Positions 15,883 through 63,635 of a DNA stretch of 64,000 bases are shown here, piece after piece (position 1 is the first letter of the stretch; every line of letters starts with the position of its first letter). The notes beneath the pieces are model-generated. The model made no database searches. It was given only the letters and a program-made list of their open reading frames with translations, and was not told the origin of the DNA. The position numbers were made by a program, and so were the translations under genes. The stretch is from Raillietiella orientalis (lineage: Eukaryota): assembly GCA_036172245.1 (NCBI GenBank), contig JAYWIR010000011.1:2666001-2730000 (forward strand). Reading direction: 5' to 3'.

Positions 15883-17271
15883 AAAAAATCGCATACTTGC
15901 TGACTATCTCCGCGACCGCGTTAGGTGCTTTAGCAGCGTCACTGCTGCTCGAGAGGATGGTCATGAATAATAAGTGGGTTCTCAGGCACGATTCGAGACG
16001 CACTCCTACCTGCGAATCCCAGTTGCCTAGCAGCGTAGGCAGTGGGTTGCATGTGCGTGTGTGTGTTTGCTTACCAGTTTGAATTCATGCATTCTGTGAT
16101 AGGCCGAGGAAGCGATGGTCACGGAAAGAACACGGGAAAGACACCCACCATACAGAACTTTGTTTCACGGTACGCGCGCGCGGTGCATTTGGGCGTTTTT
16201 TCTGCGTGTAATTTTCACTTTGCGACCGAAAACATTTCCGCCAATTTTTTCCTTTTTTTTTTTCTTCTTTTTTCCTCCTTTCGAAGAAGAAGAAGAAGAA
16301 GAAGAAGAAGGAAAAAAATGGGTTCCGTTTGCCGCGAATAGGCATCGAGGGGGAATGCAGTTCGCTATCTTCATGGTATCTGTGCGGAATAATCCCTTTC
16401 CTCCGAGCTCCATGTTGTGAATTTCGGATGTATAAGATGTTTCCTGCTCGAACGTGCTTTCACGTTTTCGGGAATGAAAACGTGTCGAGACGGCACTGCC
16501 GTGCGTTTTTATTTTTCCTGCGTTTTCGTGTTCGTCCGCTCTCCGCTTGTCATATCTGCATTTCGCCCCTTATCGGAAGAGGTGGATTCTCGCATGCAGA
16601 TTCGCAACTGTCAGGATGATTTGTATAGCATCTTTGTGTGTGTGTCACACCATCACCAATGTCGACAGCACGGCCTGAGATTTTTCCCAGTGCACAATGC
16701 CAAATATCAAAAAGAATGGGTGGAGATTTAGGGGAAGGGTCGATCACTGTGGCAGATAAAGGAAATGCAATCATGCTGCTATGCCCTATGGGCAATGCAA
16801 TTAGAAAATAGCTTTCATTATGCTTAGATTCGATAATGAACAATCCCGAACGAGCCGGAGGAACCCGAATCGCACGGCGTCTCCATCCCTTGCCAGTGGC
16901 ACCATTACTCAGTCGAATCGCGGGGAGCACAAGAGTGAGGCAAACATGTTTGCTCGGTACTGCCCCGCGGTTCGAGCTCGCGTGCTGATTTCGAACCATC
17001 AGAAGCCCAAAGACCTTTTTCTTTCTGTCTTCCTTTTTGTTTGGAAGGGTGCGTTAAGTAGTGTCGTACGGATGGTACGTACGGAACGCTTGTGCCCTCG
17101 ATGTCAAACCCCCCCCCCCCACCCACCCACGACAGCTTCCCCTCTTCTGATGTCGTGATTTGTTTCAGCACTGAAGCTGCTGGCGACGAAGAAGTGATGC
17201 AGGTGTGTTGCTCGCAAGGAGTGCACGCGTGTCCTCTGAAGTAGTGCACAGGAACTCGCCAGAGACCGATC

Positions 17272-22282: not shown

Positions 22283-23420
22283 GGCCCGCATTGGCGACCG
22301 TGCGGCTGCAGTCTTTGCGGGCGGCACCGAGCGTCGCGGGTTCGAATCCCGCCCGGGGAAGGGTCGACGCTCCGAGAGCGGGCGGTGCGCCGTGGGTTTC
22401 GGGTCCCCCCTCCCTCTCGCAGGGTGACGCCGATTGGCCTATTCGGGTGCGGCACTCATGGCAGCCGGATGCCTCCGTTGACTTGCCGGGAAGGCGACCC
22501 TCCGAAGTCCTTTTAGGAATCCTTCGAGGATCTCCTCCTCCGGCGGCGAACATGGAGCCCCCCATCGCATACCATGCAACGGGGGGCTGGTTGGTGCCTC
22601 TCCAGAGTGTGAAGAAGCGCGCTGCTCCCTCGGGGGAGCGCCCTCCGGAGACATTTAAAAGCGTCCCTTCGAGGTTCTCTTCAGAGGAGGGAGCGAAGAG
22701 CCGTTCCCGTGCGGGCGGTCCCTCCGGAGAGAACAAGGAAGAGGTTCCCTTCGGAGACAACCAGGACGAAGGTTCCCTGCCAAACGTGAGAGGAACGGAC
22801 ACTCCTTCCTCTGGAGCATTCCTGATTCCTGGATTCATAGGGTGGTTTCTCCGGGTTGACGGCGTCCCCACACCTACCCTTGTTTACCCCACGCCATCCG
22901 AGGGTGGCGCAGGCAGTGTCAAAGAGCTTCGTGAGCCTCCCCCCCCCCAAAAAAAAAGGCGAAGGGTTCTAAAGCGCTTTGCAAACTGGAAAAAGGAAAA
23001 GTGGGACAGCGGATTCCCTTCCTGGAGGTGCTGATGAGTGCGAGGAGCGGTTTTCGGGTTCCTTCGGCGATTCGCCTTGCGTCGTCTGCTCCGGACCCGG
23101 AGGGCAACCCACTGGATTCCTCGTGTAGTGAACGAGGAACCGGAACAACCAGGAGACGGCTCAGAATGCGCCGTATTTTTATTCCTTGCAGAGACGACCA
23201 GGTTCCCGAAACGAAGAGTGGTGTAAACCTTGCTCGGAAGCACCACCGACGGGAAGAGCGCGTCCCGGTCTATTTTTAATGCTTCCTCTTCGTCGAAAGT
23301 GGCCCGTCAGCTCCGGAGCCGCCGCGCGGTACAGTCATACCCGCAGCAGCGACCTTACCGAGGTTTCCGGAAAGACTCTGGAACGCCGAAGACGCCTGGA
23401 ATTCCAAGTTCCGGCGCTGC
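22283..23420 (+). mobile_element. Composite tRNA-headed retro-repeat, copy 1
   Basis: B box GGTTCGAATCC at 22339-22349; body with CCCTYCGGAGA-type subrepeats; conserved block GGGTGGCGCAGGCAGTGTCAAAGAGCTTC (22902-22930); tail with blocks shared with copy 5 (CACTGGAT, CTCTTCGT, GCCTGGAAYTCCA). The 3' end is approximate. Confidence 0.8.
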
Positions 23421-24601
23421 AGACATTTACGATGCCTTCGCATTTCCGTAGTGCTTCTCCCCCCCCTCGAAGACGCCTTCCTCCGTCCCGCGACACTTCC
23501 CGACGGGTCGACGGAGGCGGTGCTGCCATCTCTGCAGCGAACGTTGCACGCGGCTTTCATCGACAAAAACAAGAGCTGGGACAAAACGAACCGAAGGGCT
23601 CATCAGCGGGGACTGGAACAAAAAAGGGAGAGAGGAGGAAAGTGCAGGCGAAAGATCCAAACGAAGCGGAGGAGCGCCCGTCGCGGGCGGAAGGCATCCG
23701 CGGAGAAGCAGGCGAACGATTTGAGGTATCTCATCCGAAGAGCCGACAGGGGGTCTTTAACACCTCTCCTGTTCTCGGGGACCTGGATCTAGTCTGTGCC
23801 CCCCCTCCCCCCCGAGGGGGAGGAGGGAGAGCGTCGATGCCGAGGTGAGTCTCAGGACGAGTGAGGAGGATAAAAGGCCGCTGTCATCGCCCCCTGCCTG
23901 CATCCCCGATGGGGGGGAGGCGGATTCCGATTGGAGACGCTCGTCGCGCCCACCGCCACCCCAGACGCTCTATCGAGTGGCGCGCGCGTCGATTCCCGGT
24001 TTATTTTTAATCGCCCCGCTCCTGCGAGTCGCCTCCCGGCTGCGGTCCCGGCATCTTCGCCGGGGCGGAAGAGCGTGCGCTCCGAGGGACCAGCTGCCGT
24101 CCTCCCGAGAGGAGAACCCCTGCTTTCGGAGTGTGGCTTCGTTTCCGGATTCCATCCCGGCTCCCCCGGGTGGGGAGGCTTCCCTGGGCCGGTCGGCCGT
24201 GCGTCGAAGATGACCACAGAAAGACGGCTCCTTCGCGGTCCCTTGCCAAGAGCGGGTGGGATGGGGACGGAAAGTCGAGCGTCTGTCCCTCAAGACCGGA
24301 ATCGGCCGGTGGCGGGCCCAAGCATCCTGGTTCCTGGCTGCAAGTCGACCGACAAAACAGCCCCCGCAGACTCCTCCTTCCCAGCTGATGCGGGGGACGG
24401 AGGGGGTGCGGACGACGTGCACGCCCAGTCCCTGATAGCACGCGAAATCTTGTGTGTGTGGGGTTTTTTCTTTTTGGACGGTGGGGCGTGGGCCGCGGAG
24501 AGGTAAGGAGGGAGCAGGGGAGGCGGCGTCCTTTTTCCTTTTTTTCTTTCTTTTTATCCCGCGAGCGCCGCTATCTGCTCCCTGGCTCCTGGCAAGGGCG
24601 G

Positions 24602-27493
24602 CTACGACGGCATCAGCTTGGGCCAGGCTATCTTTGCGTCTTGGCGCTTGTAAACAAAAGCGCAGCTCGTGCCACCACCACCCGTTCGCGCCGCGGCCAT
24701 CTCCTTGGGGCGGTCGCCGTCGGCCAGCTGAGTCTCCTGGTCCCCGCACACGAGGAAGAGCGCGTAGTCCTGAGGGTTGGTGATGCGCTGCTTGTGGGCG
24801 ACGAGCCGCGCAAGGTCGCGGCACAGGGAATGGGGTCCCAGGGGAAAGGTGCGCGCCACGATGGCGCCGTGTGCCTCGTCGGCGATGTACACCCTCACGA
24901 AGCCGTCCAGGGTGGACGGGCAGGCGGAAGGGGAGTCTGCCAGGGACTTGAGGGCCTGCACCGCACCAAAGAGCATGGACAGGTAGTAGCCCGACTCCCC
25001 CTCCTTCATGGACCCGGGGAGCAGCGCCCACATGTACTCCGCCTCGACCTCCAACCCCAGCATCCCGACCTGCGACAGCAGGTGCTCGAAGAGGGGCAGG
25101 AAGTCTTCCGCCCCCAGGCTCAGGGCGGGATCCGTGCAGAAGCGGAGCTGAAACGGATGGTGAGGGGGTGATCCGAGGATCGGGGGGGGGGGGACACTCA
25201 CGCAAGTGAATATGGCGGAGACGGCGGACATCAGGCGGTTGAGCTTGTGGATGGGCGACACGTGGCGCTGCATGGCGCGCAGCGCGTGCAGCACGAGGTA
25301 GGCGGCGGCTTTGCACGGGAACACGAAGTCCGGCTGGCGTGAGCCCGGGAAGGGGAGGAGACGTCAGATGCGGAGGGAGGGATGGCCACCTACCCGCACG
25401 CCCAGGGATTCCGGGGAGCGACCCCTCGCCACCTGCATCCCGTTCCTCAGGCGCTGCAGCTCTCCGGAGTCGCCCACGTGATCCAAGAGGAGCTTGTAGA
25501 AGCAGGAGTGGAGGGGGGCGAGCACGAGGGGATAAAGTGCTTCCTCCAGGATAGAGCTCAGGTTGAGGAACTCCCCGGCTTGCAGCTGGAAAGACACGCG
25601 TCGGTTCCCGGTCGGGAGAGAGGGAGAGGGGTGGGGAGCGAACCTTCTGGCGTTCCTCGTCCACGAACTGCCGGAACCTGCCCTCGCCGTGCAGGGTCAG
25701 GTAGTTCTTCATCCCGGACAGGAACTGTCGGGCGTTGCGCATCACCTGAAAGGGCCCACGCCCGGGCACGAGGCGGGTGCACTCGACGAAGCGCCGGATG
25801 GCGTTCGAGAAGGTCGTGTCGGCGTCCCGCGCCAGCTCCCCCACGTGCTGGGCCACCCGCGCGCCCAGCAGGGCGTTCCTCTCGTGCTTGCGCAGCGTCA
25901 GCAGCTGCGGCGACGGGAGGGGGTTGACCCTGCGGCCCCCTCCCTTGCCCGCGCCCCCGCTGCGCAGGTTGTCGTAGTCCTGGAACTGCAGGTCGAACGG
26001 GGGCAGTGGGAGGTCCGGGTAGCGGGACGCGATGAGCTCCTCGACGGGACGGACGTTGCCGCAGTCGTCTTCCTCTAGCGAGGAGGGGCCGCCGCCGTCG
26101 CTGCCCTCACGCTTCCTGACGAACTCCCAGCTGGAGTCCAGGGTCCAGGACGCTTCGCACGACCAGTTCTTGACGAAGGGGAGCAACGCCGGAACGTCGC
26201 CACCGTTGGCGGTGGCGGCGGCAGGGGTGGCGCAGGTTGGAGGCGGCGGCACGGGGTCGTGGCTGCGGCTGAGCTGCCGCAGCCCGGGGGAGTGCACGGA
26301 CTTCCAGCTCGCACGGAGGTGGGGAGTGAGGAGGTTGTCCAGGCTGGAGAAGCCGCAGAGGAAGGGTCCGTTGCGGGCGCGCCTACGAGGCAGGGAGGGG
26401 GAGCCCCCCCAAATGTCCTCGTAGTCGCTCGCCTTGTCGTGGATGCGGCTGCGGTGGGGGAACTCGGGGACCGGGCAGCCGGGCAGCGTGCTCTCCAAAT
26501 AGTGCTGCGAGGGCTCTCTGGAGGAGGCGCTGTCGGCGCTCGCGTCCAGCTGGCAGGAGAGCAGGGTCGAGCGACTCCACCTGGGTGGAGGATCCGGGAC
26601 GGCTCTCGTGGCGTCGTCGTCCACGGACTTGAACGTGCTGAAGGTGGGCTGCTGCTGCTGGGGCCCGGTGTCCAGGGGGCCCGGCACGGGAGAGGAGGCC
26701 GAGTAGTGCTTCCAGAAATCTGAAACCGCACGACCGTCGAGGAACTTTTCTCCCGGCCTCCTCCACCGTCTTCCGCTCCATCTCCCCGGGAGGAGGAGGG
26801 GACGGAAGGAACAGGGAGAGGAAGGGGCTTCCGCGAGACACGTACCTTGTCCCAGGAGCGAAAGGGAGCGCAGCTGGCGGAAGGACGCCTCCATGATCGC
26901 GCCGGGCAGCCGCAGCTTCACCGGCAGCTCGTCGCTGGCGAGAGGAGGGGGCGCTGAACAGCGGGGCGGGGCGCGCGCGCGGGGGCGGGCGGGCATACCA
27001 GTGGGTGCAGTAGTAGGTGATGAGCTCGGCCAAGCAGCGAAAGTAGTGGGTGGAGCGCTCCAGCCGGAAGGGACCGTCGAACCTGCCCTCTATGAGGTAG
27101 TGCTCGATGTACGGCCCGCGGCTCGGGGGCAAGCGCACGGAGAGGGCCAGCGACTCGGGCTTGCGGGAGTGCCGGACCAGGAAGTTCTTCGAAGAGAGAA
27201 AGGGCAGGCTGCAGGAGGCAGGGCGGGGACGGATCGCCCCGCCGCCCCTCGTCACTTACCCCTTCATTCTTCCCCTGGAGCAAGTGGATCGCTCCCGGCC
27301 GGGTGACCTTGGGCAAGAACCAGATGTTCTCCGTGCGGATGAGACGTTCGAGCAGCTGCAGCTCCTCGGCGCGGCCCGACGACGACGACGGCGACGAGGA
27401 GGAGGAGGAGGAGGAGGAGGAGGACGGAGGACGCGGCTCGCTCTCCTCGCTCCTCTCGGAGGAAGCGAAGCTGGAATCTTCTCCGTTGCGCAT
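24602..27493 (-). CDS. spri: RIN-family Ras/Rab5 interactor (Sprint-like): SH2 + VPS9 + Ras-association domains
   Basis: Frame-consistent GT-AG exon chain: 27493-27260, 27186-26999, 26934-26846, 26719-25644, 25585-25394, 25333-25202, 25147-24602 (TAG). Motifs: LLERLIRTENIWFLP...GNFLVR...IEHYLIE...LITYYC..DELPVKLRLP (RIN SH2); QVMRNARQFLSGMKNYL; GAEDFLPLF...EAEYMWALL...GESGYYL (VPS9); ITNPQDYALF...FVYKR (RA). The true N-terminus may include upstream exons. Confidence 0.93.
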
Positions 27494-29279: not shown

Positions 29280-30409
29280 GGTTCCCGAGCGGGACGCCAG
29301 CAGGACGGGGGATCTCCAACGGATTCGACCGTCCCGGCAAAGGTCCGGCCAAGTCATGCCTGTAGCAGGTGGCTCTTCGCCACCAGCCGGAAACTCGAGG
29401 CGGAGAAACGAGTTACACAACACCGTGAAAAGTCTGCTGGCTCCTTTGCTTCCCCAGGAGCAGACGGTGCAAGTGCGGCAATACCCACGAGCTGCCGAAA
29501 GGATCGGGGAGGACTGGCCGTAGGGAAGCGACGTGCCGGGAGCACGAAAGGAGTTCTGGCTTATCGCCTCAGGCGGATGCGCCTCGGAGCGAGCTCTCGC
29601 GAGACGGCTCCAAGCACATGCAGTGCTCCGACCGGGGCTCCAACACCGGGGTTTCACGCTCGATTCGCCCTTCCATGGCTGCGTCGCATCGGTGGAAATC
29701 CTCTGGGGTTCTTCTGCTTTCGCTGCTTTCCTTCCGATTCCTTTCTTTTCTTTTCTTTAGTTCGCAAAGCGCTGAAGAACGAAGGTCTTTCAACACTATC
29801 CGCGCCACCCGAGGGTGACAGTAAACAAGGGTAGGTGTGGGGACGCCGTCAACCCGGAGAAACCACCCTATGAATCCAGGAATCAGGAATGCTCCAGAGG
29901 AAGGAGTGTCCGTTCCTCTCACGTTTGGCAGGGAACCTTCGTCCTGGTTGTCTCCGAAGGGAACCTCTTCCTTGTTCTCTCCGGAGGGACCGCCCGCACG
30001 GGAACGGCTCTTCGCTCCCTCCTCTGAAGAGAACCTCGAAGGGACGCTTTTAAATGTCTCCGGAGGGCGCTCCCCCGAGGGAGCAGCGCGCTTCTTCACA
30101 CTCTGGAGAGGCACCAACCAGCCCCCCGTTGCATGGTATGCGATGGGGGGCTCCATGTTCGCCGCCGGAGGAGGAGATCCTCGAAGGATTCCTAAAAGGA
30201 CTTCGGAGGGTCGCCTTCCCGGCAAGTCAACGGAGGCATCCGGCTGCCATGAGTGCCGCACCCGAATAGGCCAATCGGCGTCACCCTGCGAGAGGGAGGG
30301 GGGACCCGAAACCCACGGCGCACCGCCCGCTCTCGGAGCGTCGACCCTTCCCCGGGCGGGATTCGAACCCGCGACGCTCGGTGCCGCCCGCAAAGACTAC
30401 AGCCGCACG
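29280..30409 (-). mobile_element. Composite tRNA-headed retro-repeat, copy 2 (inverted relative to copy 1)
   Basis: 29821-30409 is the reverse complement of 22299-22887 with one visible mismatch; the ORF track gives matching translations in several frames. It continues into a diverged A-rich linker and a tail encoding SFRQLVGIAAL...SHLLQA, similar to the zf-RVT tail of copy 5. Confidence 0.85.
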
Positions 30410-46050: not shown

Positions 46051-46959
46051 TCCTCGTTCCTACCTCATCCTGCTTTCTTTTCTCGCAGCTCGCGGGAGCA
46101 GGGAAGACTCCCAAGTGGTCCGTTCAAGCGAAGGCGTGATTCTGGGGGAAAGGAAAGGAAAAATATGGGAGGTAGGGATGAGAGTGAGAAGGAGGGCTTT
46201 TCCTTCAGAGGAGTCTGAGGAAGGGATGCTCTTAGGAGGCTTCGCACGCGGGATTTTCTTTCTTTCGCTCCTTATTCCTTCTGCGCGAGGAAAGCGCTGG
46301 GGGAGAACAAGGGTGCATCGAAATCATGGGAATCGGGAAGGACCAGAGTGAGGGACGGCTGCATCGCGGAAATTGTGGTAGCTGAGCAGCGGTCTCCCGT
46401 GAGATGCCTACGCTGAATCTTCTGAATGGCACTGTGGCTCCTGGATCGAGCTCAATCGCCGTCTTCTTCCTTCCTTCCCCTCCTCCCTTTCAGAGCCTCC
46501 TTGTCTTGACCAGGCGCGCTCGACAACAGACCTTGGTCGTTCGTTCTGTTACGCTACATCCAGAAGATTTCCGTGAGGATGAAGAGAAGAAACGCTCCCG
46601 TCTGGGCTAGAGGAACGGTCGCAGAGACTCTTCCTCCGGAAGATTCCTGGTTCGGAATCGAGATGCTCGACAATCAACCCGATCAGCTGCTGTCTTCGGT
46701 GCCCGCTCCTCCCCTCCTCCACTTTGCCACCTTCCTGCAGCTTTTTTTTTCTTTTCTAAAGGCCAGTAGCGGCCTCACGGTGTGATCGTTACCACTGGGC
46801 TAGGGTAATTTTCACCTGGTTATGCCGGGGCATTCATTATGTAGGGTAATAAAAATACTTTGGTATGGCGGCACCCTTGGTTCTACACGCGCGATGAACC
46901 TGCCGAAGAGCGCTGCACAGACCGGCGGGGTCCGCCTCGGCAGCGTGGGGAAGAGAGAA

Positions 46960-48235
46960 ACAAAAACACAAAAAATTAAAAAACAGGGGAGGGGCCACAA
47001 TACGCTGCCGGGCGTCCTCTACATCCAGTTCAGGATGTTGGCAAGTTCCGGCCGTATAGCATCAGGGTGGGGCCATCTCGAGGCGGTCCTCAGGATGATC
47101 CGCGCCCAGTGGATAGCATCCCTGCCATTTCGGCTTTCTTCTCCTGGAGTTCCAGGCCGCCGTGATCCCGCTGAGACAGCAGAGGACTACGAGGGGTGCC
47201 GGCAGTGCGGCACCACGCACGAAGAGAAGTTTGAAAATGTCCCTGGGGCTGCTCGCCGGGATTCATAGGATCATCGCGAGGCGATCCCAAAGGTGTCGGA
47301 AGGCATCACAGTCCAGCAGCAGGTGCGGTAGGATCTCCTTCTTCCCGTTCCTGTCGCACTCAGCCTCCACGCTCCCTCTGTATCCAGTGTGAAGGCATGC
47401 TTTGCACGGGATTCCACCAAGCAACACCAGCAGTACCAACTCCCGCCACTTGAGGGAATGGCTCAGAATGATGGAAATCCTTTGGGGCTCTCCTATCTTT
47501 GCTGTTTTCCCTCCAGCTTTCTTTTTGTTTGGTTCGCCCAGTGCCGGAGGACCGTCCGCCTCCTTTGGAGCACTTACGCAGCTCTTTGACACCGCCCATG
47601 CCACCCAAGAGTGCGTGTGACTCTTTGAGTTAGGGAGCAGCCCCAGAAGGATCTTTCTGTGAATCCAGGAGGGACTCCAGATGAAGGAGCTCCTTCCTCT
47701 TAGGATGGAACCCTGAGAGGACCCTCTTCTTTATTCTCTCCCGAGGCATTCTCCGCTCCTGGAATTTCTTTCTCTGGAGAGAACCCTCAAGGGAACCTCT
47801 CCTCGTTTCCTCAGCCTCTGAATACAACCCCGTAAGGACGCTTCCCAATTTCTCTGAAGGAGCAGCACGCTTTTGACCTTCTGGAAAGGCAACCCCCAGA
47901 GGGAAATGTCAACTAGTTCCGTAGTACCGCCCTATTTTCGAAACCGGAAGGGGAAACTCGAAGGGAACCGGCTCCCTGGTTCCTGGAAGATCCTCGGAGG
48001 GTCAAGATCCCCTTCCAGTTCTGGACAGTCAACGAGGTCAACCAAAGGACTTCCATCTGTTTCCAGCAGTGTCGCACCCGAAGTCCGTGGGCCAACCGGT
48101 TTCGCCCTGCCTGGGGGACTCAGAACACACAACATACCCATTTCTCAGCGTCAATCCTTTCCCGGACGGGATTCGAACTCACGAGGCTGGGTGCCACGCC
48201 CGAGCCACCCTGACGACAAAACGGTCCGCAGGGTT
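46960..48235 (-). mobile_element. Composite tRNA-headed retro-repeat, copy 5, with the clearest LINE zf-RVT tail
   Basis: B box AGTTCGAATCC (48169-48179, minus); body collinear with copy 1; block GGGTGGCATGGGCGGTGTCAAAGAGC (47581-47606). It then reads KWRELVLLVLLGGIPCKACLH...ECDRNGKKEILPHLLLDCDAFRHLWDRL and, after a stop, ITAAWNSRRR, matching the zf-RVT/CCHC C-terminus of L1/Tx1 ORF2. Confidence 0.8.
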
Positions 48236-49499
48236 ACGGTCCTGCAACTTTTCGGGTCCTCGAGGATTCTCCGGAACGCTAAGGACACGACGGCTTGCAT
48301 CCAGGGACGCCCCTCCTTCGGTATGGGTTGCAGGCTCGGGGGATGGAGGACCTCACCGCAAGATGTCCAGGTGCTGCGCACGGTGGGGCCAAGAGAGCCG
48401 ACCATGATGGAGCGCCTCCCAGTTTGCCATACTGCCACAACCACCGTTCGCTTCTCCTCCCCCATCTGGTTGGGTCTTCGGATGTCCAAAGTAGTTGCAG
48501 CAGCACGCGGCTTTTTTTCCAGCCACCTCCGCGGTCCTGGTTACGGCCGAAAGCCCTCTGGCATTCGCTTCCTCGCCGCGGCTTGGGAGGTCTTCGGGGG
48601 GGAAGGGGGGAGGTGGGCGCAGTTTCTGCTCCCCGATGGAGCCGGAGGCGGGACTTTCTTTTTGCCATACTTCGACGCAGGAGGAGTCGCGCCATTCTCT
48701 CATCTCGCACGAGGTCTTCGGGAAGAGGGTGGGGGAGGAGCGGAAGAAGAAGTCTTCTCCTATGGGCGCGAAGCTCGAGCTCCAAGATGGCCTCCCCGCA
48801 CTTCGCCCTGCCATGAACGGACTGGCATGCGGGCCGCAGTTGGGACCGCCTTCCTCGAATCCTCGGCAGGGTCACCAAGAGGGTCGCGTTGTGCCGGAGG
48901 CATCATCGGGAAGGGTGTCAGGCAAACAACTGAGCGTGACCCGGTGGCGTCTCCCTCCACTCTCGCTGCTTGCTTGAGTCCATCAGATAGGCAGAAGGAA
49001 GCTGCATTGGATCCCTAAGCACCGGGCCAGGTGCTCATCGGACACCGGGCAAGATGCGGGTTGTCAGGACGACAGCACCGACCTCGGTGCTGTGACCAAC
49101 GCTCTTATCTGGACCGGACTGCATGGAAACGGGGAAGACTTGCGGGCAGCAGGAGGATTTGAGTGTGGAGCTATTGCCTCTCTTCGCGACGACTCTTCGG
49201 CTCCAGGTGCCTGGTCGGTGCGCGTCCGTTCCCAGCAGCAACTTCTGCGGCCGCCCTGCCTCTGAGGCGACGACCGACATCGCCGCTGCTGGTTCCATGA
49301 AGAAAGCGGCACTGCTTGCCACGAGGCTCCTCAAAAAACGAAAAAACCTGCCGGCTCCCCCCCCCTTCCTCTTGAGGTGGGCGCACCGGTAGGTTGTTTT
49401 GCCTTTTTTTTGCTTTTCCCCTCGGCTGGTCCTTGCGGACGATGCCCATATCTTCGCTCTGCCAAGTTCAGGGCTCCCCGCCGCCAAATTCCGGGCCCA

Positions 49500-51289: not shown

Positions 51290-52600
51290 GCGCCCGCGTC
51301 GGAGGCTTTGTGGTTAAGACTTCCGCGTGTGACACCATGCGTCGCGAGTTCGAATACTCCAGCATGAAGCTGACGCCACTGCGTCGTTAGGTTCCGGGTT
51401 TCTCCTACAATGGCGCTGGTTGCCGAAACATCCCGGCGTGGCACCGGTAGCGGTTAAATCCCGGAAACCCCCGATGTAGGCCTGAACAATGGGAGTCGAC
51501 CTTCGGGTCTTTCCAGGAATCCAGAAGTGGGAAGTTCCCCCTCCGGTCTTACATCGGAGAGCGAACCCCCCTCACCGGCGGACCCCTCCGGTTTCAAGAT
51601 GGAGCAGGAGCCTTCACAGACACCTCTCCAGTAGTTTAAAGGAGCTCACCCCCATCTGTTGGAGGGGGACCCTTTGAGTCGCCGTCTCTCCAGAAGAGTG
51701 CAAGGAAGCAAGCGAGAGCTATCCCCCTGCGGGAAGCTGCAGCGCCCCTTCTGAGTTTCGGAAGCGTCCCTTCGGGGCTCTCTTCAGAGGAGTGAACAGG
51801 AGCAGTTCCCTTGCGGGTTCCCTCCGGAAGAGGAATTCCTACTAGCGGATCCTTTCCGGGTTCCCTTCGAAGAAGATGAAATGGAGAGGACCACCCCCCT
51901 TCCGGGGGGTCCCTTCGGAGAGAATGAGGAAGGAGATTCCCTTTTGGGTTCTCCTTCGGAGACAACCAGGGTGGGGGAGGTGCGATCCCCCCTCCCCAAG
52001 CGTGAGAGGAACGGACTTCGATCCCTTCCTGGATTCATAGTGCGGGCCCCCTTCCGGGGTGTCCCCTATCTTGAAGAATACACACACCCTCCGCAGGTGG
52101 CGTGGAACAGTGTTAAAGAGCCACGTGCGCCGCGAGGCACGCGACCGGCTCTTGAGGTACTTAGAGAACCAAAAAAAAGAAAACCTGAAAAAACTGAAAA
52201 AAAAAATGCTGAAAGGGAAAAAACAGCGAAGACAGAGAAGAACCCAAAAGGATTTCCTCGCTTGCAGGTGCCTCTGCGAGGGCACGAGGGAAACCTTCCT
52301 CGCGCGTGCGCGGCCCTGTCCAGCCGCTCCGGGTGTCCTCGCGGCGGCTGGCACTGCGATGGGGGCCACCTCGGGTGCACTTGCTCTCTCGCGGAGGGGT
52401 AACGACCTCCCTCAGGCTAGTGTACCTTCCCACTTCTCGGTAGCGCGCTTTCGCACCAGCACTTCCTCCTCATCCTCATTGCCATCCTCGCTGCTTCCCC
52501 ACCCTCGGGAGCCGGGTCCAAGGGGACTTTTGGGTGCCGCCCCGGACTCTCGCGACCGAGAGGTGGAACCCTGGCTCTGGTAATGGCACTTGGATGCGGC
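51290..52600 (+). mobile_element. Composite tRNA-headed retro-repeat, copy 3 (diverged, expanded subrepeat array)
   Basis: A-box-like GGCTTTGTGGTTAAG and B-box-like AGTTCGAATAC (51347-51357); about five TCCCTTYCGGGTTCCCTYCGGAGA-like units at 51765-51965; TCCTGGATTCATAG; GGTGGCGTGGAACAGTGTTAAAGAGC (~52096-52121); A-rich linker ending AACCCAAAAGGATTTCC as in copies 2 and 5. Confidence 0.75.
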
Positions 52601-62929: not shown

Positions 62930-63635
62930 TGTCCTTGGTTCGCCAAGGATGAAGAACCGCTCGGAAGGAGATAAGAGCACATGAAGCTCTTTAGCACCGT
63001 CCACGCCACCAGGCGCTACTCTTCAAGTCAGGGAGCCATCCCGGGGGGACCACCTGATGAATCCAGCAAGAGCTCCGGAGGAAAAACTCCGTGCCTTCCA
63101 CGCTTGTTAGGGGAACCCTAAATTCAACCTCTTCCTTGTTCTCTCCGGAGAGACCCCCCGGTTTGTGGGGGCCACTCCTGGAATTTTTTCTTCGGAGGAA
63201 ACCCGGAAAGAATCCGCTCCTCGTTTTCTCCTCCTCTGAAGAACTTCGAAGGGCCGCTTCCCGATTTTTCTGGAGGGCGCTGTCCAAAGGGAGCAGCGTG
63301 CTTCTTGGACACTCTGGAGAGGCAACGACCAGCTCCATGGGACGCGATGGATGATCTCCATCTTCAGATCCGGAGAAGGTGAAAGCCCCGAAGAGAACCG
63401 GCTCCTTGGTTCGTGGAAGAACCCCGGAGCCAGTCAACGGGGGCATTCGGCTTCCACCGGTGCCGCACCCAAAGCGTATAAGGTCAACCAGCGTCATCCT
63501 GCAGGGAGAGGGACAAGAAACCCACGGAGCACCCCCGTTCTCGGGGCGTCGATTCTTCCCCGGGCGGGATTCGGACCCGCGAGCACTCGTTGCCACGCAC
63601 AAAGACAGCAGCCGCACGGCCGCCCACGGGTGAGA
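62930..63635 (-). mobile_element. Composite tRNA-headed retro-repeat, copy 4
   Basis: The minus strand reads CCGTGCGGCTGCTGTCTTTG...CGCGGGTCCGAATCCCGCCCGGGGAAG, TTCGGGTGCGGCAC-like, CTCCGGAGAGAACAAGGAAGAGGTT, CTGGATTCAT and GGTGGCGTGGACGGTGCTAAAGAGCTTC, all collinear with copy 1. Confidence 0.8.

Follow-up and report, generated by a model that had tools for sequence, protein, structure and literature searches.

Among LINEs with a preferred target, Zepp inserts into itself. Members of the Tx1 clade target DNA transposons, LTR elements, snRNA genes and microsatellites: Tx1 of Xenopus lies in Tx1D, Tx1-Mar in Mariner-N4_AMi, Tx1-9_AMi in Harbinger, and Tx1-8_Crp and Tx1-4_AMi in LTR elements (PMC4494074). 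The same source regards a LINE as target-specific when more than 20% of its copies lie at one target sequence, and it describes R2 as co-transcribed with its target (PMC4494074); no SINE is among the Tx1-clade targets named there. In the shared-tail model, tRNA-derived SINEs carry a LINE-derived 3′ tail (PMC3747384; PMC4494074). The U6/L1 chimeras (PMC6789731) and the WEIRD/Mg-SINE/MGL chimeras of Magnaporthe (PMC2104539) are described as products of the RNA or cDNA step, with one duplication around the whole.

The DNA analyzed here is a stretch of 64,000 nucleotides (the window) from a eukaryotic assembly of 210 Mb. A preliminary description had taken five repeat copies in it for one non-autonomous Pol III element of 1.2–1.4 kb with a borrowed ORF2 tail. 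Part of that model stands, namely a tRNA-derived, presumably Pol III-transcribed SINE family and an L1/Tx1-like ORF2 that is joined to it many times across the genome; the single composite element does not. It is well supported that there is no new composite family here and that a target-specific L1/Tx1-like LINE has the 3′ end of a tRNA-derived SINE as its target. Two elements are nested, an abundant SINE and 5′-truncated copies of a LINE (family A) that were inserted at the SINE 3′ end with target-site duplications, and a minor composite was probably copied again. The probability of this reading is put at about 0.85.

Repeat Copies in the Window

Self-BLAST recovered one repeat in five copies, collinear and at the places given earlier, and profiles of the head and the 3′ end match 5/5 of them. 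As first described, the repeat has a B-box head, a body, a GGTGGC..AAAGAGC block (47606-47581) and an A-rich linker, and the body contains degenerate subrepeats of ~43 nt (D1/D4/D9 in the copy at 51290+). The copy at 48235- leads into sequence for an ORF2 C-terminus, in which the peptides of the preliminary description and one in-frame stop are found; this LINE piece is 44% identical to residues 1055-1164 of an intact ORF2 from a sister LINE family (E 3e-26). The interval first assigned to it, 46960..48235, marks the right locus, but the element extends further, to 46746. Degenerate counterparts of the LINE had also been proposed 3′ of other copies. These could not be upheld, as the scores 3′ of the other four copies against the LINE reference are 23-27 with shuffled maxima of 25-30, versus 777 for the copy at 48235-, and a tblastn search with ORF2 across the window gave a match at 47454-47004 only. 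LINE sequence is present in one of the five window copies (48239-46746), and the other four are without it:

22283..23000, + strand: SINE copy without LINE, its 3′ end lost within the A-rich linker (head and 3′ profiles, LINE-reference scoring)
29690..30409, - strand: SINE copy without LINE, its end being GGATTTCC (self-BLAST, profiles; 97.5% identical to the copy at 22283+ over 635 nt)
51290..52258, + strand: SINE copy without LINE, of a younger, longer subfamily with a consensus of 963 nt (subfamily alignment)
62930..63635, - strand: SINE copy without LINE, its 3′ end interrupted (profiles, LINE-reference scoring)

Some neighboring copies are near-identical over the SINE only, with unrelated flanks. 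This is seen between 22299-22932 (+) and 30409-29779 (-), at 97.5%, and between 51290-52190 and a copy ~90 kb downstream (L038), at 98.5%; typical SINE copies are 70-87% alike. Such pairs suggest gene conversion between nearby copies or local re-insertion. The window also holds a stop-free frame of 1039 codons at 23970-27089 (-), in GC-rich DNA that lies between the first two SINE copies, and a T-rich/A-rich inverted repeat at 16240-16320 with chance microRNA matches in Rfam, all far under the cut-offs.

Anatomy of the Joined Copy

The copy at 48239-46746, in which SINE and LINE are joined, comprises the following parts:

48240..48252, - strand: outer target-site duplication, 5′ copy, from the SINE insertion (13-nt direct repeat with 46733-46745, 92% identical)
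48160..48239, - strand: tRNA-derived SINE head, with the B box at ~48168-48180, decayed here (head profile match)
47607..48159, - strand: SINE body with degenerate subrepeats; it holds the antisense site that family B uses at other loci, after GCGGCACTGGT, at ~nt 170
47473..47606, - strand: GGTGGC..AAAGAGC block, A-rich linker and the constant SINE end motif GGATTTCC (47480-47473)
47459..47472, - strand: inner duplicated target, left copy, decayed, ATCATCCTAGGCCA (by eye 11/14 identical to the SINE tail consensus)
46810..47456, - strand: 5′-truncated family A LINE insertion (ORF2 C-terminus at ~47456-47004 with a stop and a frameshift, then a T-rich 3′ UTR, a poly(A)-signal-like hexamer and the end GCCCCGG..CCGGGTG, 46838-46813)
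46758..46809, - strand: inner duplicated target, right copy (46809-46796), then the SINE's own terminal inverted repeat and T-run
46746..46757, - strand: A-rich tail of the SINE
46733..46745, - strand: outer target-site duplication, 3′ copy (direct-repeat comparison)

A search for target-site duplications, proposed in the preliminary description, was borne out: the 13-nt direct repeat (48252-48240, 46745-46733) encloses SINE and LINE together and surrounds head, LINE and hairpin tail. The inner duplication of this copy is weak when taken alone (0.33 in the duplication test), and the claim of an inner duplication is carried by the genome-wide test given below.

The tRNA-Headed SINE Family

The window copies are members of an abundant tRNA-headed SINE of ~0.8-1.0 kb. 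There are 1446-2461 first-look candidates and 259 exact genome-wide copies of the SINE end 16-mer, and the head profile matches in 6 of 20 arbitrarily chosen 10-kb stretches; the genome may, on a rough estimate, hold several thousand copies. Old-type full copies measure 681-877 nt up to the end motif (n = 27) and are 81.5% identical to a consensus whose mixed subfamilies inflate their apparent age. The young subfamily (n = 24) has a consensus of 963 nt, an identity of 92.6% and no T4 run.

ARAGORN and Rfam found no tRNA on the window copies or at the head locus L078, and the tRNA-like head of the earlier account holds at the level of the family, where the consensus of 28 heads folds as a tRNA in ARAGORN at a relaxed score. 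This consensus contains A- and B-box-like blocks, and its best match is the genome's own tRNA-Arg(CCT), with a score of 66 versus a maximum of 60 in 200 shuffles, a small margin with which the isotype is not firm; nhmmer gave E 5e-5 among 60 tRNAs, the comparison set being 60 of the 62 tRNA loci found in the genome. The head of the young subfamily has a tRNA score of 62, below its shuffled maximum of 72. Judged by its sequence, the head is tRNA-derived with A and B boxes, as in SINE2 elements, and the family is dispersed, high-copy and non-coding, without an internal Pol III terminator, as SINE2 elements are.

LINE-free copies stop at or near GGATTTCC-ATCATCC, or continue through an inverted repeat of 45 nt into a T-run and then poly(A); full copies ending in poly(A) number 6/40 and are also found at L061 and L066. 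The SINE is complete without the LINE, its own end being the hairpin, T-run and poly(A). In the terminal hairpin 88% of cells pair versus 24-51% in slid controls, and folding gives a median z of -2.2 over 26 tails, with the structure drawn from the consensus; compensatory changes were not seen in it, and RNAalifold kept 5 pairs only. The terminal element is an inverted repeat with predicted pairing rather than a proven RNA structure. Target-site duplications of the SINE itself are visible in a minority only (4/24 young copies score, versus 34/552 control pairs). In addition, several SINEs have internal deletions past ~nt 55-120 of the head (L263, L268, L271, L240, L269 and L122), and at L268 a 58-nt head is joined straight to a LINE piece, a minimal tRNA-head plus LINE-tail structure. 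Two tandem SINE copies occur at L064 and a repeated head at L040; SINE-after-SINE joins are rarer than LINE-after-SINE joins.

LINE Family A and Its Sister Families

The joined tail is LINE sequence, with RT sequence upstream of it at L031. The LINE copies joined to SINE ends form one star-like clade, family A (support 99/98, 23 rows), whose pieces are 87.5% identical to their own reference (76 pieces) and ~69% identical to the sister families in the 3′ part of ORF2. The longest copy, at L035, measures ~3.1 kb, begins inside the endonuclease domain and lies at a SINE end. An autonomous LINE with the same 3′ end had been thought worth seeking; queries with the RT region found no intact family A copy and returned sister families at 71-77%. 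Family A is seen as decayed copies only and is long dead. The copy at L170, a candidate for a solo family A copy, was rejected, as it groups near family B. At five loci (L247, L248, L249, L270 and L276) one family A copy has identical flanks and is therefore carried in a larger repeat or duplication.

The sister families contain intact ORF2s of ~1200 residues with PF03372, PF00078 and a weak PF13966, and their ORF1s carry zf-CCHC, one above the cut-off. The zf-RVT domain had been expected on the LINE tail: Pfam returned none on the window fragment, and the intact sister ORF2s match weakly, at 24.5 and 22.6 bits versus the curated cut-off of 27.5, in the region that aligns with the window fragment. 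By their predicted domains, the intact sister families have the APE endonuclease, RT, C-terminal zinc region and upstream ORF1 of L1-group LINEs; the ESM Atlas gave the domain content again and nothing further. The best database matches of the RT are unnamed, fish and lizard proteins at 32-34% identity. In an RT tree of 26 rows chosen from 83 matches, a set without a labeled Tx1 reference, plus two of our own, the latter sit on a long branch; the fork from which it arises is open and also leads to animal and plant groups, and Tx1 and plant L1 are not separated. The LINE may be called L1/Tx1-like, with a Tx1 clade placement that is not firm in this tree. The notion that the SINE is the 5′ UTR of the LINE was rejected, there being no SINE upstream of 10 long sister LINE loci and the SINE having its own end. 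Young sister LINEs occur at L147-L156, with 95-97% identity between copies, intact ORF2s of ~1200 residues and nested clusters. Five of these loci (L149, L150, L152, L155 and L156) have one 3′ flank in common, namely the endonuclease region of another LINE in antisense, which is due to either LINE-into-LINE targeting or duplication.

Target-Site Duplication and Order of Insertion

When only the LINE 3′ end was used as a query, a SINE end was found directly upstream at most loci. The 10-16 joint bases from ATCATC onward recur 3′ of the LINE end, with locus-specific bases and shared substitutions. This was tested on 59 two-ended composites, 37 short-ended and 22 hairpin-ended, of which 31 short-ended loci with at least 10 SINE-side bases were testable: 14/31 match their own 3′ flank, versus 38/930 mismatched control pairs, and 0/50000 permutations reach the observed total. 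An earlier, smaller test gave 11/23 versus 3% of 506; it dropped 3/53 loci without a 3′ anchor and included some decayed hairpins. The left edge of the duplication is at ATCATC, the SINE-side stretch has a median of 14 nt, and the inner duplication is visible by eye at L108, L262 and L269. Family A thus has a target-site duplication at a fixed position, as target-specific LINEs do. Because joining at the RNA level cannot copy a locus's downstream flank to the upstream side, the LINE entered SINE copies that were already in place.

The 17 testable loci under the duplication threshold include some that are mis-anchored or tandem and some that have probably decayed. No flank match was found at L003, L100, L111, L117, L245, L273 and L035; L258 has hairpin sequence on the SINE side and a short, unrelated 3′ end, and among hairpin-ended loci the SINE side is hairpin-like in 8/15 only. 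Decay of two 12%-diverged copies explains the duplication-free loci in part only. At L104, L119, L242 and L246, later LINE insertions entered the same motif behind earlier LINE copies. The order of ages fits the nesting, because old SINEs stand at 81.5%, family A at 87.5% and young SINEs, which are without LINE (0/30), at 92.6%; the young subfamily postdates family A.

Target Specificity

The exact end 16-mer of family A contains ATCATC and no SINE-specific upstream sequence. It occurs 48 times genome-wide; 47 occurrences were examined and 6 were dropped as duplicated regions. For 27 of the 41 independent ends the location is a SINE end, as a script showed for 25 and inspection by eye for L244 and L269; the chance of this location is ~0.03-0.1% per insertion. 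The remaining 14 comprise 4 on a truncated SINE, 2 unclear, 3 that run past the stretch examined and 5 without SINE. With 27/41, above the 20% rule, family A is a target-specific LINE. Viewed from the other side, 7/37 distinct exact SINE ends are followed by LINE, in a sample of 40 of the 259 exact ends taken first in contig order with 4 skipped.

To which element the shared end belongs is indicated by its neighbors. Among 26 exact hairpin tails, 21 follow a SINE, 4 a LINE and 1 neither, and no other LINE with the shared 55-nt end was found among them. The sister LINEs end a few bases past CCGGGTG, with ATCAT next in 0/25, and at family A ends ATCAT is next in 13/13, some with substitutions; this survey used a narrow motif (38 ends) that misses the ends of families B and C, so that the sites of these two are taken from single-locus reading. 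ATCATCC and the hairpin are best read as target, that is SINE, and not LINE, because the sisters lack ATCAT, the tails mostly follow a SINE, and family B, which likewise ends a few bases past CCGGGTG, has its own target next to that end. At L013, L019 and L243, family A copies that have the hairpin but no SINE upstream suggest that LINE transcripts may read into the tail of the target.

Other LINE pieces lie inside the SINE. Family B is antisense right after GCGGCACTGGT, at ~nt 170 of the SINE, at 4/4 loci read, with a clear 18-nt duplication at L007, and a third type of LINE piece (C), in sense orientation, occupies one site of the SINE body at L017 and L119:

L002:445-1100, antisense to SINE: family B insertion
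L007:270-540, antisense to SINE: family B insertion
L010:1-520, antisense to SINE: family B insertion
L172:7648-8457, antisense to SINE: family B insertion
L017:390-985, sense: LINE piece in the SINE body
L119:165-795, sense: LINE piece in the SINE body, same site as at L017
L241:155-961, sense: LINE piece in the SINE body, at another site, with a 9-nt duplication

The SINE thus appears to offer two further fixed sites, each used by a different sister LINE family (4 and 2 cases).

Proposed Mechanism and Alternative Explanations

In the mechanism that we propose, the full SINE RNA would end in GGATTTCC-ATCATCC-hairpin-T-run-poly(A), most genomic copies stopping at or near ATCATCC. Family A would have inserted by target-primed reverse transcription at the ATCATC of resident SINE copies, in the same orientation. 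Its endonuclease would nick the bottom strand where ATCATC begins on the left; the LINE RNA, which would end just past the poly(A) signal and often read into the SINE tail, could pair with the freed primer; and a second nick would follow 10-16 nt downstream. A small minority of the composites would have been copied again as a unit.

A single insertion per locus would suffice if the reverse transcriptase had jumped from LINE RNA to SINE RNA, or if the two RNAs had been ligated beforehand. Like the U6/L1 and Magnaporthe chimeras (PMC6789731; PMC2104539), the copies described here combine a fixed small-RNA 3′ end with a variably 5′-truncated sense LINE; the outer duplication in the window surrounds both parts, and some loci are without an inner duplication, with L258 fitting such an event. 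Unlike the chimeras as these sources describe them, the LINE part has a further duplication of its own and such joints account for most of the LINE family's copies. The single duplication around the whole that marks the U6/L1 type does not hold here, inner duplications being present in about half of the testable loci, although a minority is compatible with it. Moreover, co-insertion cannot put the flank bases peculiar to a locus both before and after the LINE, as is observed in the 14/31 loci and by eye at L108, L262 and L269, and the young SINEs, the likeliest RNA donors, are those without LINE (0/30). Chimeric co-insertion is therefore an improbable general account that may explain a minority of copies. 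Less credible still is the reverse order, in which SINEs entered the 5′ edge of older truncated LINEs or both elements favored genomic ATCATC sites. The 5/41 family A ends that have ATCATC 3′ and no SINE upstream agree with it, but SINE 5′ flanks rarely repeat ATCATC (2/24 with a one-mismatch match), the composites have no LINE sequence upstream of their SINE heads, the outer duplication in the window includes the hairpin tail downstream of the LINE, and family A appears to be of later date than its old host SINEs.

Whether the tail could be a fixed, ORF2-derived part of one Pol III composite that spread as a unit, as was first described, can be judged from the joints. Their SINE side is constant, but 65 joints have 55 different LINE start positions, with 215-1485 nt of LINE retained (~3.1 kb at L035); the upper bound of this range is set by the length of sequence examined. 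Two groups of starts could be taken for traces of a spreading unit: position 893 is common to three loci, and 16/65 joints cluster at 931-950 nt from the LINE 3′ end. The latter lie in a C-rich stretch with differing SINE-side stretches that match their own flanks, and LINE identity is 0.801 in this group and 0.813 in the 893 group versus a background of 0.809 (1236 pairs). The 931-950 cluster is on this evidence a truncation hot spot, not the product of one master; a pause of the reverse transcriptase or microhomology with the target is a possible cause. A case for spread as a unit is made by L119, L241 and L279, the only three loci that share a diagnostic joint. Because these have one joint in common, including non-reference bases, and differing, unrelated flanks, they are probably a minor composite copied again as a unit; L279, with a SINE part of only ~20 nt, resembles a 5′-truncated retrocopy. 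The LINE 3′ UTR contains T-runs of 4-12 T that should stop Pol III, and re-copying of composites through Pol III transcripts should therefore be rare; four of the five window copies are tail-less as well. The single-composite model is thus very unlikely as a whole and is true of a small sublineage at most.

Comparison with Described Systems

Two nested elements, a SINE and a LINE aimed at its 3′ end, share much with the target-specific Tx1 LINEs: the sister families have an ORF2 with APE endonuclease, RT and weak zf-RVT and an ORF1 with CCHC, and family A favors one position of a dispersed repeat, at 27/41 far over the 20% rule (PMC4494074). Unlike the Tx1 elements described there, family A has as its target the 3′ end of a SINE, in sense orientation, and each insertion consequently mimics a LINE-tailed SINE; other sites within this SINE appear to serve two sister families, and the clade placement of our elements is not firm. 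The SINE resembles the shared-tail SINEs in its tRNA-like head, body, putatively structured 3′ end and poly(A) and, probably, in mobility by reverse transcription with occasional duplications, and differs from them, as they are described in PMC3747384, in that the 55-nt end common with family A appears to be owned by the SINE, the sister LINEs being without it. As in R2 and Zepp, target sequence on the element's RNA may aid targeting, and insertion is repeated beside earlier copies; R2 has a restriction-like endonuclease and an rDNA target, whereas here the endonuclease is presumably of the APE type and the target a dispersed SINE. No report of a SINE-targeting LINE came up in the literature search, which took in neither Repbase and Dfam nor most subscription papers, so that novelty is unproven.

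Implications

The surprise is limited, as LINEs with site specificity form a class already known and the targeting family died out long ago. For annotation, the locus is a warning that repeat finders will merge nested SINE-LINE pairs into a false composite family. Views on the origin of LINE-derived SINE 3′ ends are usually drawn from the completed elements. In the present genome such joins arise repeatedly as a LINE lands at the 3′ end of a SINE; the marks of duplication can still be read, and a further round of copying seems to have followed for one product. It is also tempting to speculate, and no more than tentatively, that a radiation of LINEs divided one SINE as target, with the 3′ end taken by A and a body site by C, both in sense, and ~nt 170 by B in antisense, that family A aimed by means of the SINE tail on its own RNA, and that composites were made of which at least one spread, so that the replacement of a SINE tail would be seen in progress, hundreds of times. 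SINEs join the list of targets of sequence-specific L1/Tx1-like elements, and the sister families, with intact ORF2s and apparently different targets, are a natural series for change in the specificity of an APE endonuclease.
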